The notes beneath the pieces were generated by a model, which was not told the origin of the DNA, did not search any database, and saw only the letters and a program-made list of their open reading frames with translations. This document shows positions 1,253-59,133 of a stretch of DNA of 59,133 nt, piece after piece. The stretch is from a virus (taxonomy: Duplodnaviria; Caudoviricetes). The DNA lies in IMG/VR virus record IMGVR_UViG_3300037336_000152, positions 1 to 59,133 of that record. One strand, 5' to 3'. Every line of letters starts with the position of its first letter. The stretch's first letter is position 1. The position numbers were made by a program, and so were the translations under genes.

Positions 1253-1320
1253 GCGTGCCGGTCCGCCAATTAATTATACGCATCAAAAAATGATGAAATC
1301 TAACCAATTGTTGCTATGTC
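1253..1320 (-). promoter_or_regulatory. Conserved leftward moron promoter/linker (copy at 57939-58006)
   Basis: 68-bp ungapped near-identity between cassettes A and B; TATAAT on minus strand. Confidence 0.7.
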
Positions 1321-1538
1321 ACTGCGTCGAGGATTTTTCGCAGTGATGCCTTTATTTCGGCCAGCTCGGCCTGCGTTTGACCTCTACTATCTCGCAGGCG
1401 AATAAGTATTTCCTGATTGAGCGAATGCCCGTGCTGCTCGGCTGATAGTTGAAGATCGCGATGTAAATCTGGCGGAAGACGCAATGCGGTTTTGATGTAG
1501 TCGGCTTGTGTTGTTTTTTTTGCGGGCGGTATCGGCAT
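1314..1538 (-). CDS. Arc-family ribbon-helix-helix DNA-binding protein
   Basis: TALRLPPDLHRDLQLSAEQHGHSLNQEILIRL Arc motif. Confidence 0.8.
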   Translation of the reverse strand: MPIPPAKKTTQADYIKTALRLPPDLHRDLQLSAEQHGHSLNQEILIRLRDSRGQTQAELAEIKASLRKILDAVT

Positions 1539-1665: not shown

Positions 1666-1681
1666 GTAGGATTGTTCCTAC
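1666..1681. promoter_or_regulatory. Palindromic operator GTAGGA-N4-TCCTAC upstream of smORF A
   Basis: Perfect 6-4-6 inverted repeat, also at 58084-58099; followed by -10-like TACGAT. Confidence 0.65.
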
Positions 1682-1718
1682 TGTACGATTGATTGCTTAA
1701 TCGAACCAAAGGTTGTAG

Positions 1719-1922
1719 ATGAAAAATTATGACGAATACATAGCAATGTATTTGCGAATGAATGACGCGGCAAGGCAAATTATGTTTGATACGTCCGTAC
1801 GGCTTCTACAATCCCCTTCAGCGCAACGTCGGCGACCGACCCTATCCTTGGTTCCGCAAAACATCGGCCGGGTCGCGCCTGGGCGCGCTGGCAACAGTGG
1901 ATCGGATCGCGTGCTGCCCTAA
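1719..1922 (+). CDS. Small protein convergent with cI-A; putative antirepressor resembling the CI C-terminal domain
   Basis: AAAGG RBS; positional homolog 58139-58375 shares Y..xN...R..+.D and PTLxLVP. Confidence 0.6.
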   Translation: MKNYDEYIAMYLRMNDAARQIMFDTSVRLLQSPSAQRRRPTLSLVPQNIGRVAPGRAGNSGSDRVLP

Positions 1923-2288
1923 AGGGTCTGCCAGTCGGTATGCCTCAAGTAAATTTATCTCGTCCTCATAAGCCAAAATCAGTCTCGGCAGGCCCTTTTC
2001 GGAATGCGCCTCAACGGGAAGTCCTGCATCGGTAGGTCGATCCGGCGCGCGATGTTCCGCCGAGTCACTTTCAGCACCAGGCGCTCCGCGCCCAGTGGTT
2101 AGCCACTCAACGCTTACCTGTAATACCTCGGCGACTTTGCCTATCCTAGCCCGATTTGGCGCGGTCCCACCCTCTTTTTCCCATAGTTGGACGGTTTGCC
2201 ATGCCACGTTGAGCTTGGTTGCCAGAGCCTTATGACTCGCCATGCCAAGTTCTTGGCGACGCTGCCTGATTCGTTGGTGAATGCTCAT
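1842..2288 (-). CDS. cI: CI-like XRE repressor, cassette A (no S24 peptidase domain)
   Basis: HTH SIHQRIRQRRQELGM...LNVAWQTVQLWEKEGGTAP...VSVEWLTTG; divergent from cro. Confidence 0.85.
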   Translation of the reverse strand: MSIHQRIRQRRQELGMASHKALATKLNVAWQTVQLWEKEGGTAPNRARIGKVAEVLQVSVEWLTTGRGAPGAESDSAEHRAPDRPTDAGLPVEAHSEKGLPRLILAYEDEINLLEAYRLADPLGQHAIRSTVASAPRRDPADVLRNQG

Positions 2289-2776: not shown

Positions 2777-3225
2777 TCGATCAACTGATTGACCTGATGT
2801 CGCGCCCAGTGCAGGGCATCGAGATCGCCGCCGACGACACGCCGGCACTGATCCTGGCCGAGCTGCGCACTCATTCCGCATTGCTGACTACGCTCTGCCA
2901 GCACCAGGACGACGCGGCCAAGATTCACGATGCGACCGTGCGCGGCTTTAACTCACGCACGGCTAAGTCAATGCCATCCCCGTCTGATGGGATGTTCTTC
3001 CGTTTGGGCGGTGAACCTATTCCCTGGCCTGGGCACTCCCGCTGCGAAGAAACACTCAGTGCTTCGGATCAGGCGCAGCTTGAAACTCGGAAGTTTGCAA
3101 TTTCCGAACTGCCGAATTTAGAGCCTCGGCCAGTTCCGATGCCTGGGGAGCGGTCAGGACAAATTGCGGACTCTGAATCGCTTCTGGCAAAAGTTGCATC
3201 GGACTCGTCAGGTAATCGAGCCTGA
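2758..3225 (+). CDS. Hypothetical protein
   Basis: ORF downstream of cro; 3' half overlaps the antisense BssS-like gene. Confidence 0.45.
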   Translation: MSLETKLDQLIDLMSRPVQGIEIAADDTPALILAELRTHSALLTTLCQHQDDAAKIHDATVRGFNSRTAKSMPSPSDGMFFRLGGEPIPWPGHSRCEETLSASDQAQLETRKFAISELPNLEPRPVPMPGERSGQIADSESLLAKVASDSSGNRA

Positions 3226-3298
3226 CCGTGACAGCTTCATACGCCTTGATCGGCCCGATAGTCCAGCCGCACACCGGAAATAGCTTTATCTCGTCCAT
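3056..3298 (-). CDS. BssS-like protein
   Basis: FPVCGWTIGPIKAYEAVTVRLDYLT resembles the BssS motif HPxxGWxIxxxxxYxAxxxRLxY; AAGGG RBS. Confidence 0.6.
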   Translation of the reverse strand: MDEIKLFPVCGWTIGPIKAYEAVTVRLDYLTSPMQLLPEAIQSPQFVLTAPQASELAEALNSAVRKLQTSEFQAAPDPKH

Positions 3299-3412
3299 GG
3301 GAAGCCCTTTTGAAAGTTGTTGTTTAGGAACTGCAACTTTAACTCATCAGGGCAGCCCGCCCGTTTTACCTGAATTTCAACACGTTCCAACCCTCTGAAA
3401 ATGGAGAAACAA

Positions 3413-3718
3413 ATGAGTACACGTAACCGCACGAAAATCCGCGAAACCTGCGTCAACAAGGTCGAGGACGACACCATCACTGACCACCTGCGCGACATCG
3501 GCATGGCGTTTTCCACCTGGTCCCGAATGGTCATGTTCGGATCCATTGCTGAGCATGATGCACTGCAAGCGCGACCAGTGGAATCCCGTAAATGTCGGGA
3601 TGCTCCGATGGCAAGCCGGCCATCAGCCAAGCCGGGCAGGGCCATTCAAACGGCTGTTCGCCATGGCGGGCGGCATCGGGCGGGATTCGGCGGTGCGCCC
3701 CGGCCAATCCGGGTTTGA
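3413..3718 (+). CDS. Hypothetical regulator (CII position)
   Basis: GGAGA RBS; position in early right operon. Confidence 0.5.
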   Translation: MSTRNRTKIRETCVNKVEDDTITDHLRDIGMAFSTWSRMVMFGSIAEHDALQARPVESRKCRDAPMASRPSAKPGRAIQTAVRHGGRHRAGFGGAPRPIRV

Positions 3719-4280: not shown

Positions 4281-5045
4281 ATGATAGCACAATCACAAAA
4301 TGCCGCATCCGGCGCGCCTACCGCTGCGCCAGCGGTGACGATGACGAGCTTGGAGCTTGTCACCATTATCAATTCCATGCGCGAGCCTGGGCGCGCAGAT
4401 CTTCGCCACGATCATTTCATGGCAAAGATCGAGAATCACCCCGGAATCGACTCACCCAAATTTTTGGGCCAGTACAAGGACAGTACAGGCCGCACGCTCA
4501 AGTGCTACCAGTTGCCCAAGCGCGAATGCGAGATCCTTGTGATGAGCGAGTCGCTGGCGGTTCAGGCCAAAGTGTATGACCGCATGACCAAACTTGAATC
4601 CCATCCACCAGCGCGCGCACGTCGCGCTCGACTTCCGAAGGCGCCGATTCTCGTCGCCGCTGCTCTGATCCCGCCAGTTATGCGTACGCTCGAGCGTATG
4701 GGTATGGACAAAAACTCGGCCGCGATCAGCGCAAACCGCATGGCGCTGGCAGAAACTGGCGTGGACTTCCTTGCCCTTGCCGGACACACGCATTTGGTCA
4801 CGCCGACCCAAGAACTGTGCTTCACCCCGACCGAGCTTGGCTCGCGTCGATGCATGAGCGCAAAGGGCTTTAACATTCATCTTGCTCAGCGCGGCCTGCA
4901 GGAGCGCATCAGCGGCCACTGGGTGCCGACCGCCAAGGGCGCGCCCTTCGCCGTGGTGCTCGACACCGGCAAGGCGCACGGCAACGGCACGCCTATTCAG
5001 CAAGTTAAGTGGATCGACTCGGTGATGAGCGAGGTAGCCGCATGA
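4281..5045 (+). CDS. Rha-family regulatory/antirepressor protein
   Basis: TMTSLEL...RHDHFMAKIE...YKDSTGRTLKCYQLPKRE; KilAC-like C-terminus. Confidence 0.8.
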   Translation: MIAQSQNAASGAPTAAPAVTMTSLELVTIINSMREPGRADLRHDHFMAKIENHPGIDSPKFLGQYKDSTGRTLKCYQLPKRECEILVMSESLAVQAKVYDRMTKLESHPPARARRARLPKAPILVAAALIPPVMRTLERMGMDKNSAAISANRMALAETGVDFLALAGHTHLVTPTQELCFTPTELGSRRCMSAKGFNIHLAQRGLQERISGHWVPTAKGAPFAVVLDTGKAHGNGTPIQQVKWIDSVMSEVAA

Positions 5046-42776: not shown

Positions 42777-43769
42777 TCAATCCAGCCGGCCTGCAATATC
42801 CTCTGCGCTTGCGTTGTAGTATGTCATTAACTGTTTGATATCTCTATGCCCGACCATGCGCGCCAGGTCCAGCACATCAAGTTTTCTCGCCAGCCTGGTA
42901 ATCGCTTCGTGGCGCGTATCGTGGAACGTCAAGCCTTCAATGGTCGTTCGATTGTCCCTCGCCTTGCGAAACAAGGCGTCGAGCGATGACGACGACAGGC
43001 CGAACAGGTAGGCGGACTCTGGCAGCAGGCCTATAAGTTCCCGCGCGCGAGTGGAAAGCGCCACGGCGCGGCTCGTCCCGTTTTTCGTGTCGCGCAGAAT
43101 CGCGGTCCGGCCGATGATGTCGCCCGGGAGAAGGTTGCAAATCTCACCGGCGCGCATTGCTGTCTCGATAGCGAAAAGGAAAGCTACGGCTACAGCCTGC
43201 ATTTTTGTCCGCGCTGGCCCGCCGTCGAACCCGAGCGCCTCGCAAATCTGCGCCGCCTCTGCATCGCTGATGCGCCGGTCCCGCGCTTTGGACACTCCGG
43301 GTCGCCTCGTGTCGGTCGTCGGGCTGGTCGCAATCCAGCGCCATTCGCGCCTAGCGGTGGAAAATACGTGTGACAGCAGGTTCATATCGCGCACGATCGT
43401 CGACCCGCTTACCACCTTCAGTCGGGAATCACGCCAGGCGCCCAGCACCTCCGGCGTGACCGCGCACAGGCGCAAGCTCCCCAATCTCCCCAATTTCCCC
43501 ACCTCGTGATTCGCCAGGGCGAGAATTCTCCGCTGCTCTGCCGCCGACGTTTTTTTGTGCGCAGATACCTCAGTGGCGTAGCGATCGAACGCGTCCTGCA
43601 TTGTCTTGTCAGTATTTACGCCAGTTTCGACCATGCGCCGCAGTTCGGTTTCCCGCGCTGCTGCCCAAGACTGAGCCTCCGCTTTCGTTGAAACGGTTGT
43701 CGAATCGCGCACGCCGCGCACGTAGACCTGGGCTCGCCAGCCGGATTTTTGTTTTGTGATGGATGCCAT
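42777..43769 (-). CDS. int: Tyrosine integrase
   Basis: ETAMRAGEI, TKNG, FHDTRH, VGH, YY catalytic residues. Confidence 0.95.
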   Translation of the reverse strand: MASITKQKSGWRAQVYVRGVRDSTTVSTKAEAQSWAAARETELRRMVETGVNTDKTMQDAFDRYATEVSAHKKTSAAEQRRILALANHEVGKLGRLGSLRLCAVTPEVLGAWRDSRLKVVSGSTIVRDMNLLSHVFSTARREWRWIATSPTTDTRRPGVSKARDRRISDAEAAQICEALGFDGGPARTKMQAVAVAFLFAIETAMRAGEICNLLPGDIIGRTAILRDTKNGTSRAVALSTRARELIGLLPESAYLFGLSSSSLDALFRKARDNRTTIEGLTFHDTRHEAITRLARKLDVLDLARMVGHRDIKQLMTYYNASAEDIAGRLD

Positions 43770-56525: not shown

Positions 56526-57278
56526 TCACTTCAGGGCTGGTGCTGGCGGTGTCGGCTGCGGCACAACTGGCTGAGACGAAGAAACTGCCGATGGCTGGAT
56601 GACAGGTACTGAATGATGGGAAGCCTTGTTGATGTAGGTTAGCAAGCCAACCGTCGCACCAATAATCGCAATCGCAATACCGAGACCCCATTTGATAAGG
56701 TCAGAAGTATTCTTGTGCATCTCCGTTTGCAACTTGGCCATTTCCGTACGCATTTCGGCGAAACCTACCCGCACGTCCGCAAATCCTGTTTTGATGCTTG
56801 CGTCGAAGTTGGCAAGGCGTGCGTCAATCTTCGCTTCCGAAGCAGCGATCTTTGCATCTACTTCCTGGCGGGTCAGATCAGTCATAGTTGCATCATTGGG
56901 CAGTTCTTCGTTATTGTCAACCACGGAGTGGGCGCGAATCGGCTTAGAGGTCGGCGCAGGGGCATCATCAACTGGAGGTGTTAGCGAGGCAAAGTCTTCG
57001 GCCAGCGCCATTATCTCGGCCAATCGCTTTGCGCCATCTTCGGTGGACGGGTTGGTGTCTTGCGCGGCCCGCTTGAATTCTTTCCTCGTTGTAATCCCTT
57101 CAAGCCCGAGTGCTCTCAGCCGCTCGCCAATGGTCGCGGCCATCGTGTTTTGCCGTCTGGCGTGCTGAATATAGGCCTCAAACCCCTCACCAGCCCGGTC
57201 AAGAGTTTCGGTTTTACTCGGCGCCGCCGCCTTTGTTGCTTGCGTCGACGGCTTGCGCCTATCTTTTATGGATGCCAT
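56526..57278 (-). CDS. Moron: TMP-like N-domain + coiled coil + C-terminal TM + Pro-rich tail
   Basis: Residues IGERL...PPVD align with the tape measure protein; TRQEVDAKI...EMAKL...LIKWGLGIAIAIIG DUF1640/CCDC90-like stalk and anchor. Confidence 0.8.
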   Translation of the reverse strand: MASIKDRRKPSTQATKAAAPSKTETLDRAGEGFEAYIQHARRQNTMAATIGERLRALGLEGITTRKEFKRAAQDTNPSTEDGAKRLAEIMALAEDFASLTPPVDDAPAPTSKPIRAHSVVDNNEELPNDATMTDLTRQEVDAKIAASEAKIDARLANFDASIKTGFADVRVGFAEMRTEMAKLQTEMHKNTSDLIKWGLGIAIAIIGATVGLLTYINKASHHSVPVIQPSAVSSSQPVVPQPTPPAPALK

Positions 57279-57556
57279 TTAGGCCTTTCAAGTTCGCCTG
57301 CGCGCCATTCTGGCTTACCCACTACAATCGCCCGCCACCACTCGCCCAGGCTGGTAGGCGATGCGGCCGACAAAGATCGCCCCCATCAATCGCCGCGGCC
57401 TGTTGTGGGTTGTAATTCACCTGTAAGTCCTTATTTCTACGCCATGAACGAGAATTTTCCGCATCGATGACCATGCTTTTTCGGAACACCACTTTGGGTT
57501 TTGGGGTGCAGCTGGCGTAGTCGGTGACGTCACCGTCACCCATGTGTCTACACTTC

Positions 57557-57916
57557 TCAGAATGCAAGTGCCTGAATTTTTGTAAATGTTTTAGCGTCAG
57601 TAGTGGCAAGCATCTTCTTTCCATCCTTCATTATCAGAATGAAAGTAACATCCTTGCCCCTGCCTCCGAGCAAAAGGCCCGCCAAAAGCCCAACAGGTCC
57701 GAGCAATACGCCGCCAGCAAGTCCCCATCCAACTGTGCCGCCAGTGCGCTTTACATCCTCCTCGGATGCGACGGATGCCGACTCAACCTGCCCAATAAGA
57801 GTGACGGTCTTCCCTATAAGTCCATCGCCAGGCTGCCATGCCAGCAAGATGACACTGGCAGATGCAGAGTGCCTACCCTTCGGGAAGTCGCCAGCATGTA
57901 TTTCAATTGTCGCCAT
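57557..57916 (-). CDS. Moron (cassette B): glycine-zipper membrane protein
   Basis: IHAGDF...EEDVKR.GGTVGWGLAGGVLLGPVGLLAGLLLGG...VTF...KDG...LA; GGAGGA RBS. Confidence 0.75.
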   Translation of the reverse strand: MATIEIHAGDFPKGRHSASASVILLAWQPGDGLIGKTVTLIGQVESASVASEEDVKRTGGTVGWGLAGGVLLGPVGLLAGLLLGGRGKDVTFILIMKDGKKMLATTDAKTFTKIQALAF

Positions 57917-58083
57917 ATATCCTCCACTCGGCATCATCGCGTGCCGTGTCGCCCATTGATTATACGCAAAAAAAAATGATGAAATCTAACCAATTGTTGC
58001 TATGTCGCACATAGCCATGATGTGAGAATTTGTTAGTTTTAAAGCATCAAAGTAATCGTAAAAACGCTTATTGTTCTGCGCAT

Positions 58084-58099
58084 GTAGGAGTTGTCCTAC
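58084..58099. promoter_or_regulatory. Palindromic operator GTAGGA-N4-TCCTAC upstream of smORF B
   Basis: Same palindrome as 1666-1681; TATAGT -10 at 58104-58109. Confidence 0.65.
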
Positions 58100-58138
58100 T
58101 GGGTATAGTTGCCTTTTCAATCGTACCTGGAGTCATCA

Positions 58139-58375
58139 ATGCAAGATGTGCAGCAACTATTAAATCTTTATGAGCGTACCAATGAGATTGGCAGGGACTT
58201 TCTCATTGACCAGGCCAAGAAATGTGTGCGGGACTGGCCGGCGAATGTTGTGGCGACCCTACCCACCCTTAGACTCGTCCCGCCTCTGCCCGTCCGTACG
58301 CCGCATGGCCGACTCGACGCCATTGGAAATCATTCGTCGTGCCACCTCGTCGCCAAGACGCCATGCAATAAGTAA
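58139..58375 (+). CDS. Small protein convergent with cI-B; putative antirepressor
   Basis: CTGGAG RBS; QQLLNLYERTNEIGRDFLID...PTLRLVP. Confidence 0.6.
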   Translation: MQDVQQLLNLYERTNEIGRDFLIDQAKKCVRDWPANVVATLPTLRLVPPLPVRTPHGRLDAIGNHSSCHLVAKTPCNK

Positions 58376-58672
58376 TCGCAATTCATCCGTCGATCTGGCA
58401 CCGTCACTCAATAAGCTATTTGAGTCGCCATCATTGCTTTTTTCATGGTCTCGGTCCATCCATCCGACAGGCTTATCGCAACCATGTTCAAGCTTGCGCG
58501 CTAGGGCGTCACCTACGCCACGAACCGTTCCTGTAGACGACTGAGCGCCAGTCAATATTTGACTCAGGTACATGGGGGCCGTGAGCGCCCGCTTAGCCAC
58601 GTCGTCGGCGGTCTTAAATTCGGCCACCAGGGAGCGCAGGTTTTTCAGTCTCAATTCTTTTGATGTGGCCAT
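58259..58672 (-). CDS. cI: CI-like repressor, cassette B (no S24 peptidase domain)
   Basis: R..NLR.L...YLSQI...RGVGDALARKLE...P.GWMD..H HTH family; divergent from cro. Confidence 0.85.
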   Translation of the reverse strand: MATSKELRLKNLRSLVAEFKTADDVAKRALTAPMYLSQILTGAQSSTGTVRGVGDALARKLEHGCDKPVGWMDRDHEKSNDGDSNSLLSDGARSTDELRLLIAWRLGDEVARRMISNGVESAMRRTDGQRRDESKGG

Positions 58673-58685
58673 GTCGATATTAAAT

Positions 58686-58750
58686 AGCATTGCGCTCATT
58701 TGGAGAATGTGCAAATTGCTATTGCAAAACCAAAAGCAAATTGCTATAGT
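58686..58750. promoter_or_regulatory. OR/pR of cassette B
   Basis: Sites AGCATTGCGCT, TGCAAATTGCT, AGCAAATTGCT; TTGCAA-N17-TATAGT. Confidence 0.85.
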
Positions 58751-58756
58751 TGGTGC

Positions 58757-59056
58757 ATGAAACTTCTCAGATACGTCCAGACACACAGTACTCAGCGCGA
58801 ACTTGCCGTTAAGTTGGGCATTACACCGGTACTCATCAGCCAGTGGGCCAACGAATCAAGGCCAGTACCGCCAGAGCGATGCGTTGAGCTGGAGATGGCA
58901 ACTGACGGGATGGTTACTCGTCGTGATCTGCGCCCGGACGATTGGTTGCGCATCTGGCCAGAACTTCGTCCCACCCGCAAGCCATTAGCCAAAACCGTCA
59001 TGGAGACGGGAGTCGATCAGACTGACCCGAACTGCGTTGCACAAAACCCCAAATAA
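58757..59056 (+). CDS. cro: Cro/YdaS-family regulator, cassette B
   Basis: QRELAVKLGITPVLISQWANESRPVPPERCVELEMATDGMVTRRDLRPDDW..IWPEL. Confidence 0.9.
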   Translation: MKLLRYVQTHSTQRELAVKLGITPVLISQWANESRPVPPERCVELEMATDGMVTRRDLRPDDWLRIWPELRPTRKPLAKTVMETGVDQTDPNCVAQNPK

Positions 59057-59133
59057 CCAGGACGCCAAATTAACACCCGCATCACCCGAAGTCCTGAACC
59101 CACGAAAGCAAGCCATGAGCCTTGAAACCAAAC

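Follow-up and report, generated by a model that had tools for sequence, protein, structure and literature searches.

The subject of this work is a small gene that runs head-on into the repressor gene of a phage. The DNA is the IMG/VR virus record IMGVR_UViG_3300037336_000152 (Caudoviricetes), 59,133 bases long and analysed over its whole length, which we call the window. It holds two repressor cassettes, A and B. In cassette A, the gene cI-A (1842-2288, minus strand) encodes a repressor of 148 amino acids with an N-terminal helix-turn-helix (HTH) domain of the XRE/434 type, a linker and a C-terminal two-helix hairpin. In cassette B, the gene cI-B (58259-58672, minus strand) encodes 137 amino acids that end in a hairpin of the same kind and begin with a domain unrelated to that of CI-A. 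The 3' end of each repressor gene is overlapped by a convergent small open reading frame (smORF) on the plus strand: smORF-A (1719-1922, 67 amino acids) by 81 nt and smORF-B (58139-58375, 78 amino acids) by 117 nt.

The first-pass annotation of this DNA had described both repressors as lacking an S24 autopeptidase and as ending in a short helical domain, and this description holds. Pfam gives no match to Peptidase_S24 at E<=1 in either protein. CI-A matches HTH_3 and Phage_CI_repr only, and its family profile, compared with the PDB, finds the N-terminal domains of the 434 repressor, P22 C2 and SinR (the last at E 6e-4). CI-B has no Pfam match; over residues 1-84 it matches phrog_12107, 'transcriptional repressor', and the relatives of its N-terminal domain mostly have S24. 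The hairpin segment of CI-A lies at 1878-1964 (minus strand; residues ~109-137, the coordinates being computed from aligned template positions) and aligns with the smORF family in hhalign.

The two smORFs also lie where they had been placed. The helix pattern and the PTLxLVP stretch said to be common to them are recovered on alignment (28% identity over the first ~60 residues, E 1e-5 in a single comparison). What has to be revised is their extent. The frames are real, and conservation is limited to a core of ~48 residues that ends at an L-x-L-V motif: residues 1-48 of smORF-A (1719-1862), a helical hairpin with a short L-x-L-V tail, and residues 1-50 of smORF-B (58139-58288). What follows, running antisense into cI, varies in length and sequence and is unconserved run-on. 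The consensus reads M-x-N-L-x-R-x-I-A-A-Y-x-x-M-D-x-R-x-R ... P ... L-x-L-V; the tail has the consensus L-R-L-V-x-G-G, with L42 and L44 conserved at 90% or above. In the part outside the cI overlap, the ratio of non-synonymous to synonymous change (pN/pS) is about 0.2-0.5, and third-position change is in excess in all seven pairs of relatives (7/7). Judged from this pattern of change, the smORF is a real protein family under purifying selection. We considered the smORF as a chance antisense frame of cI and rejected this, as the conservation lies outside the overlap.

How large is this family? A profile built from 15 smORFs alone was searched against 1.84 billion representative proteins and matched 212 of them at E<=1e-3 and 26 at E<=1e-10; smORF-B corresponds to match P0002 (E 2e-13). 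Nearly all matches are 48-90 amino acids long with the domain at the N-terminus, and those members whose names were checked are called 'hypothetical protein' only. Word-based homologue searches with single smORFs returned only the window's own protein; the relatives came from the profile search. Among annotated families, the smORFs have no relative in Pfam, PHROG, NCBIfam or the PDB. At E<=1, Pfam holds no family for smORF-A, smORF-B, five single-hairpin members or the CI C-termini, and the smORF profile has 0 matches among PDB sequences at E<=10. AlphaFold2 (136-row alignment) models smORF-A with a mean confidence (predicted local distance difference test, pLDDT) of 80.7, as helices at residues 4-13 and 16-31 followed by an extended tail; the hairpin itself reaches 93-97 over residues 1-30. 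A Foldseek search with this model found nothing in the PDB at E<=0.001, and a search of the ESM Atlas found unnamed 'hypothetical protein' clusters only, with scores of 0.86 or less. A lone hairpin of two helices is a unit that normally needs a partner.

The likeness between the smORF and the C-terminal domain of CI, proposed from the two cassettes by eye, becomes much firmer when families are compared. In hhalign, 12 smORFs against 12 CI C-termini gave a probability of 69.5% (E 4e-5); with deeper alignments (136 against 17 rows) this rose to 92.9%, with E 3.8e-7 over 29 columns. The likeness is also seen with a hidden Markov model of the smORFs run over 5,846 open reading frames from the window and 39 loci: the best matches outside the family were CI C-termini, the best of them at E 0.0012. 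A Y-x3-D-x3-R signature is common to smORFs and CI C-terminal hairpins. On these profile comparisons the smORF is a paralogue, that is, a free copy, of the C-terminal hairpin of the repressor. A prediction of the complex between full-length CI-A (12-row alignment) and the smORF-A core (15 rows), run without controls, scored 0.00 against a mark of 0.32 and weighs neither way on binding.

Hairpin and smORF occur together. In a sample unbiased as to the smORF, which consists of the loci fetched from viral contigs and genomes by repressor queries only, plus the two cassettes of the window, a convergent smORF was present at 15 of the 15 repressors with a hairpin (one of them, in locus L027, frameshifted) and at none of the 26 without. 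Of these 26 repressors, 22 are long with an S24-type C-terminus (Pfam confirmed S24 in 10 of the 10 long relatives tested, the remainder being assigned by length and similarity alone), three are short with another C-terminus and one is unclear. The same N-terminal domain carries S24 in some phages and the hairpin with its smORF in others (L031 against cI-A; L014-L026 against cI-B and L013). On DNA-binding domains that are otherwise similar, the hairpin with its smORF thus stands in for S24, and the two modules are interchangeable. Searches that started from the smORF gave nine further convergent pairs (L042-L044, L051, L052, L054, L059, L060, L065), which makes a total of 24 loci with at least 8 unrelated N-terminal domains. 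The overlap between smORF and cI was 27-129 nt in the 12 of 12 loci measured and is seen in the later pairs too. Over 21 non-redundant loci (L007 and L030, near-copies of L006, and L027 with its broken repressor being excluded), smORF identity tracks hairpin identity (r 0.56, reached by 0 of 2000 permutations) and does not track the identity of the N-terminal domain (r 0.09, reached by 518 of 2000). Since the coding regions overlap, this makes hairpin and smORF a co-inherited unit and is not proof of a co-evolving interface.

Some of these loci have peculiarities of their own. In L027 the repressor is split (3001-3537): its N-terminal domain ends at 3378 and the hairpin follows in another frame (3379-3537), whether through a real frameshift or an assembly error. 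The same locus has a smORF with a 25-residue N-terminal extension and no L-x-L-V. Three short repressors with the cI-A type of N-terminal domain (L032, L034, L037) have a different helical C-terminus, of the A-F-D-R-L ... A-F-G type, and no convergent smORF; this C-terminus may be a third kind of module.

What lies upstream of the smORF? In 16 of the 24 loci, cassette A included, a gene for an Arc-like ribbon-helix-helix (RHH) protein is divergent from it. In cassette A this gene occupies 1314-1538 (minus strand), its product matches HicB, FitA-like_RHH and Arc above the Pfam cut-offs, and it is a candidate regulator of smORF-A. Two loci (L027, L042) have a LysR gene in its place, and L010 is cut off on this side. 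The region delimited by the first-pass annotation begins at position 1666, which is the first base of a palindrome common to both cassettes. This is a perfect GTAGGA-N4-TCCTAC at 1666-1681, 38 nt upstream of the smORF-A ATG and just upstream of a -10-like TACGAT (1684-1689), and we consider it a candidate operator in the smORF promoter. The second copy, at 58084-58099, lies 40 nt upstream of the smORF-B ATG and is followed by TATAGT (58104-58109). The motif occurs twice in the window, against 0.00 occurrences expected, and versions with one mismatch are seen by eye in L003 and L004. Because cI-A and cI-B differ and cassette B has no RHH gene, any protein that binds this palindrome is encoded elsewhere. 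In 8 of 18 loci, the smORF ATG is preceded at 35-41 nt by a -10-like TATAGT or TACGAT. The stretch that separates the RHH gene from smORF-A contains an imperfect palindrome of the GCCTCCA-N4-TGAAGGC type (1580-1597), with similar palindromes in the same place in seven further loci; read by eye, it is a candidate RHH operator.

The switch had been called non-SOS. The LexA-box consensus that we used was CTGT-N8-ACAG, the only LexA motif scanned; with at most one mismatch, it was present within the 250 nt upstream of the smORF in neither cassette of the window and in one of 18 loci. In this respect the window agrees with the label, which remains tentative. The single case, in L043 (a prophage in a metagenome-assembled genome of Herbaspirillum), is a perfect copy that precedes the smORF ATG by 74 nt, which suggests that the smORF receives different inputs in different phages.

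Another feature of the upstream DNA is a conserved block of ~22 nt (TGTGAGAAT-n-TGTTAC-w-TTTCA type) about 105 nt upstream of the smORF ATG, at 1602-1624 and 58024-58046 in the window. The same block stands at the same place in L002, L005, L010 and L029, whose cassettes are otherwise dissimilar, and in several loci inverted repeats specific to the locus come after it.

The presence of two cassettes in one record needs a comment. They had been taken for two otherwise unrelated cassettes, and the retention of the smORF in both for an argument that it functions. The smORF is indeed kept in both; the cassettes, however, are two alleles of one locus and not two loci. The ends of the record repeat each other with 91-98% identity (1-142 and 57259-57397; 1253-1320 and 57939-58006; 2618-2776 and 58975-59133), so that A and B are found at one and the same place in the genome. 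The genome is circular and about 57.2 kb long, and the record, being longer than one genome, runs past its own starting point. The stronger argument from retention is that the smORF has been kept across 24 loci with at least 8 different DNA-binding domains.

Seen in this way, positions 1-2776 and 57259-59133 consist of three short shared blocks flanking two variable blocks, which are two alleles of the immunity region and two alleles of the gene to its left (a 358-residue frame at 193-1269 against a 126-residue frame at 57557-57937). A single public run holds this DNA; it is a DNA run, possibly the source sample, and no RNA run was listed among the public runs holding the stretch. In its assembly, contigs end exactly at the borders of the shared blocks. 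The contig of cassette B has a depth of 125, and another contig, of 1,389 bases and depth 11.9, connects 58006 to 58975 with different letters between. Its size fits the 1,297-base segment of cassette A plus the shared ends, and the depth of the B form is about ten times that of this contig. We read A and B as two heteroimmune variants in one phage population, and take it that the assembly passed through both on its way round the circle.

The remaining genes of the region can be described briefly. Divergent from each repressor gene is a cro-like gene of the YdaS/Cro family on the plus strand, gene A at 2370-2699 behind a PR-like promoter at 2336-2363, and gene B at 58757-59056 behind one at 58722-58750. 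For gene B, the ATG at 58757 is the likelier start, because the listed TTG start at 58700 precedes the promoter. The two cro-like genes are nearly identical at their 3' ends (2618-2699 and 58975-59056) and otherwise different; since the shared block starts inside both, the recombination junction lies within cro. A tyrosine integrase is encoded at 42777-43769. Downstream of cro, in the rightward early operon, a gene for an Ant-like protein of 254 amino acids (4281-5045, plus strand) matches phrog_63, 'anti-repressor Ant' (E 1.7e-12). It was weighed as the trigger of induction and rejected, as it sits inside the repressed early operon.

The family reaches beyond this phage. Isolates of Duganella, Janthinobacterium and Pseudoduganella are among its carriers. 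In the bacterial family of Duganella phyllosphaerae, 13 of 301 sampled genomes matched at E<=1e-3 in a six-frame profile search (one of the 13 is flagged unpublished, which bears only on the tally and on the context of one match). In an even sample of the class, the one match among 400 scored genomes was the query genome itself. Among 50,697 deposited phage genomes, neither blastn with both cassettes nor tblastn with two family members gave a match. Bacterial genomes also have arrays of two to four hairpin genes on the same strand: L048 (516-1650), L056 (765-1641), L057 (805-1659), L053 (1196-2216) and L063 (1226-1737). None of these arrays has a convergent repressor. Some adjoin a protein of ~145 amino acids whose N-terminus is a hairpin and whose C-terminal part is conserved; the proteins around the arrays belong to no NCBIfam or Pfam family. 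Four library proteins (P0041, P0114, P0123, P0126) have two hairpin units in one chain, P0041 being annotated as hypothetical in an Oxalobacteraceae isolate.

Which known systems does this resemble? The SinI-SinR pair of Bacillus subtilis is a chromosomal biofilm switch in which SinI, a small paralogue of the helical C-terminal oligomerisation domain of SinR, forms a heterodimer with it; sinI lies upstream of sinR in the same direction. Here too there is an XRE-type HTH repressor with a small helical C-terminal domain, and its N-terminal domain is the one that matched SinR in the PDB. Here too the candidate antagonist is a paralogue of that C-terminal domain (the 92.9% of hhalign). The differences are that the smORFs and the CI C-termini have no Pfam match to SinI (E<=1), that the present system belongs to a phage and not to a chromosome, and that the genes are arranged differently. 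A second parallel is immI of phage P22, where Mnt and Arc control Ant, and where, as here, an RHH repressor gene is divergent from the antirepressor gene. The smORFs, having no PHROG or Pfam match, belong neither to P22 Ant/KilAC nor to the families of 186 Tum and the Gifsy antirepressors, and the Ant-like protein of this phage is encoded separately (4281-5045).

The closest parallel in phages is AimX-AimC of the 'extended' arbitrium systems of Bacillus phages. AimC is a short non-cleavable repressor with a helical C-terminal domain for oligomerisation. AimX is reported to bind this domain, replace the second subunit and block DNA binding (Kabel et al., bioRxiv 10.1101/2025.11.23.689978), and the authors liken this to SinI/SinR; a LexA site is found upstream of the AimX gene in some phages and not in others. 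The anatomy described there is that of our loci: a short HTH repressor (80-140 amino acids there) that has no domain for autocleavage, a cro-like gene divergent from it, a very small frame upstream of the repressor that points towards it with sense-antisense overlap, and a LexA site before the small gene in some phages only. No sequence relation was found. None of AimR/AimP was seen, the upstream neighbours here being RHH, LysR or unrelated frames, though AimR itself was not searched for. The hosts here are Gram-negatives of the Oxalobacteraceae type. The smORF is detectably homologous to the repressor C-terminal domain, and the accessible part of the preprint does not report the like for AimX. 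Function was measured there and is proposed here.

A third relative in kind is the transcription factor (TF)-smORF module of vibriophages, VqmA-Qtip included. There a TF gene is divergent from a gene of ~55-80 codons without known domain (Silpe et al. 2023, PMC10432266). The product of the small gene is reported to switch off the cI of the same phage non-proteolytically, so that lysis can be reached without SOS. In these linear plasmid-like phages the modules lie away from cI, with repA on one side and telN on the other; cI is also SOS-cleavable and the TF is an activator. Our smORFs are likewise divergent from a TF gene in the loci with RHH or LysR, cassette B having neither. They differ in that the module abuts and overlaps cI, that CI lacks S24 and that the smORF is a paralogue of part of CI. 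The location is thus not the one between repA and telN, and the record has an integrase, though telN and repA were not searched for. In place of the activator of the vibriophages, the RHH protein here is a candidate regulator. Finally, the small antirepressors under LexA control (186 Tum, Gifsy GfoA/GfhA; Lemire et al. 2011, PMC3121763) share with our case a non-cleavable repressor and a candidate antirepressor that is regulated separately. Unlike these and the N15 type, an SOS box is rare before the smORFs (1/18) and is in neither window cassette. Unlike LexA and the cleavable lambda CI, CI-A and CI-B lack the peptidase that 10 of 10 longer relatives have. We file the smORF family as new and previously unannotated, with a proposed mechanism of a type already known from SinI/SinR, AimX/AimC and the TF-smORF modules.

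The smORF probably encodes a small antirepressor and would be the Gram-negative counterpart to SinI/SinR and AimX/AimC. The specific form that we favour, at somewhat better than even odds (roughly 55%), is that it is a SinI-like, dominant-negative antirepressor of the hairpin CI within an immunity switch of three parts. The first part would be a lambda-type repressor with a variable HTH domain, a linker and, in the place of S24, a two-helix hairpin that presumably serves self-association. The second would be the convergent gene, overlapping the 3' end, for a free copy of this hairpin of ~50 residues with its short L-x-L-V tail; the third, usually, a divergent gene for an Arc-like RHH regulator. 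In the lysogen the smORF would be kept off. If its promoter fires, free hairpins would pair with the hairpin of CI and displace the second CI subunit. The CI oligomers needed for operator binding would then fall apart, and cro and the early operon would be derepressed. Convergent transcription into cI may add to this effect, and an antisense contribution of the smORF to cI control is possible, the overlap being always present. A dominant-negative, heterodimerising antirepressor was what the first-pass annotation had proposed. The anatomy to be expected of one is there, in a real and selected protein that is a hairpin paralogue, strictly linked to repressors with this hairpin in place of S24 and usually provided with a divergent regulator; the heterodimer and the effect on induction we infer.

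Several points weigh against this reading. The oligomerisation of the hairpin, the binding of smORF to CI, the direction of the effect and the nature of the input signal are all things that we infer. The natural two-hairpin protein P0114 was modelled by AlphaFold2 as four helices with a predicted template modelling score (pTM) of 0.40 and low confidence in the second hairpin, so the packing of hairpin on hairpin is not confidently predicted. Simple mimicry of the hairpin does not account for the conserved L-x-L-V tail. Because hairpin and smORF overlap physically, they are bound to be inherited together, and this is no proof of interface co-evolution. Nor is the domain exclusive to a role with CI: family members occur without a convergent repressor in eight places (L062, a weak match, not being counted), often as arrays. 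Neither an RHH nor a LysR neighbour is found in cassette B, L013, L059 or L060. The candidate RHH palindrome, for its part, does not cover the -10 but precedes it by ~70-90 nt, so that RHH control of the smORF is an analogy with Mnt/Arc of P22 only. The smORF promoters have no recognisable -35, and a scan for the sigma-70 consensus found the PR-like promoters only.

Other suggestions can be made regarding what a free hairpin might do. One of them starts from the tail. Instead of serving self-association, hairpin and L-x-L-V tail together might dock on a further partner, for example RNA polymerase, a protease or adaptor of the host, or some other protein of the phage. The free copy would then compete with CI for this partner. 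Depending on the partner, CI would be stabilised, which favours lysogeny, or stripped of a cofactor. The tail is among the best-conserved features of the smORF, AlphaFold2 leaves it extended, several CI hairpins end in similar hydrophobic tails, and a short linear motif conserved in this way points to an external ligand in common. But the tails of CI are far less conserved than those of the smORFs, no candidate partner emerged, and convergent, mutually interfering genes with a separate regulator fit antagonism better than support. We think this unlikely, while keeping it in view.

Rather more speculative is a wider role that would embrace the arrays. The hairpin might be a portable currency of subunit exchange among the mobile elements of this bacterial lineage. 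It would be fused to many unrelated DNA-binding domains, and free copies, single beside phage repressors and in arrays of two to four in islands, would set by pair-specific competition which regulators oligomerise. The near-invariant L-R-L-V(-x-G-G) tail of the free copies may be a second functional element that tethers them to a host machine such as a protease; the smORF product would then deliver CI for destruction, a proteolytic route in place of S24 autocleavage. We regard this as doubtful.

The free hairpin could also act in the opposite direction. Made in the lysogen, it might join the oligomers of CI as a co-repressor or assembly factor and strengthen or extend repression, for example by bridging dimers. 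Paralogy and linkage fit any hetero-oligomer, not only an inhibitory one, and the hairpin arrays elsewhere can be read as building blocks. Yet a hairpin that lacks a DNA-binding domain would need two interfaces to do more than cap or dilute the oligomers of a DNA-binding protein. SinI and AimX, its known analogues, are inhibitors, and the smORF faces cI head-on, an arrangement in which expression of one normally lowers the other. This makes a supporting role quite improbable.

That the locus is a device at the RNA level only, with convergent transcription or antisense RNA acting on the 3' end of cI and the peptide incidental, would agree with the overlap at every locus measured and with the lack of a terminator-like site between smORF and cI, but has very little chance of being right, as amino-acid conservation with excess synonymous change is found outside the overlap with cI, the stretch inside it is unconserved, the protein family counts 212 clusters with a conserved start and motif, and the AimX authors (bioRxiv 10.1101/2025.11.23.689978) judged the sense-antisense interaction there to be probably not consequential.

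What does a SinI-like antirepressor mean for the annotation of temperate phages? In the usual annotation, a repressor without S24 has an inducer that is unknown or distant. Here the likely inducer is the adjoining gene of 50 residues, and because such a gene overlaps the repressor gene on the other strand, it is mostly missed by gene callers. A rule for finding it follows: in a set of prophages of soil and freshwater Betaproteobacteria, the induction gene would be the one that faces the repressor gene and encodes the C-terminal hairpin of this repressor as a free copy. The natural recombinants present 'hairpin plus mimic' and 'S24 autopeptidase' as interchangeable sensor modules on the same DNA-binding domain. 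If the proposed mechanism is confirmed, the two alleles in this record would provide matched cognate and non-cognate pairs for the specificity of small antirepressors, and the principle of SinI and AimX would extend to Gram-negative lambdoid phages.

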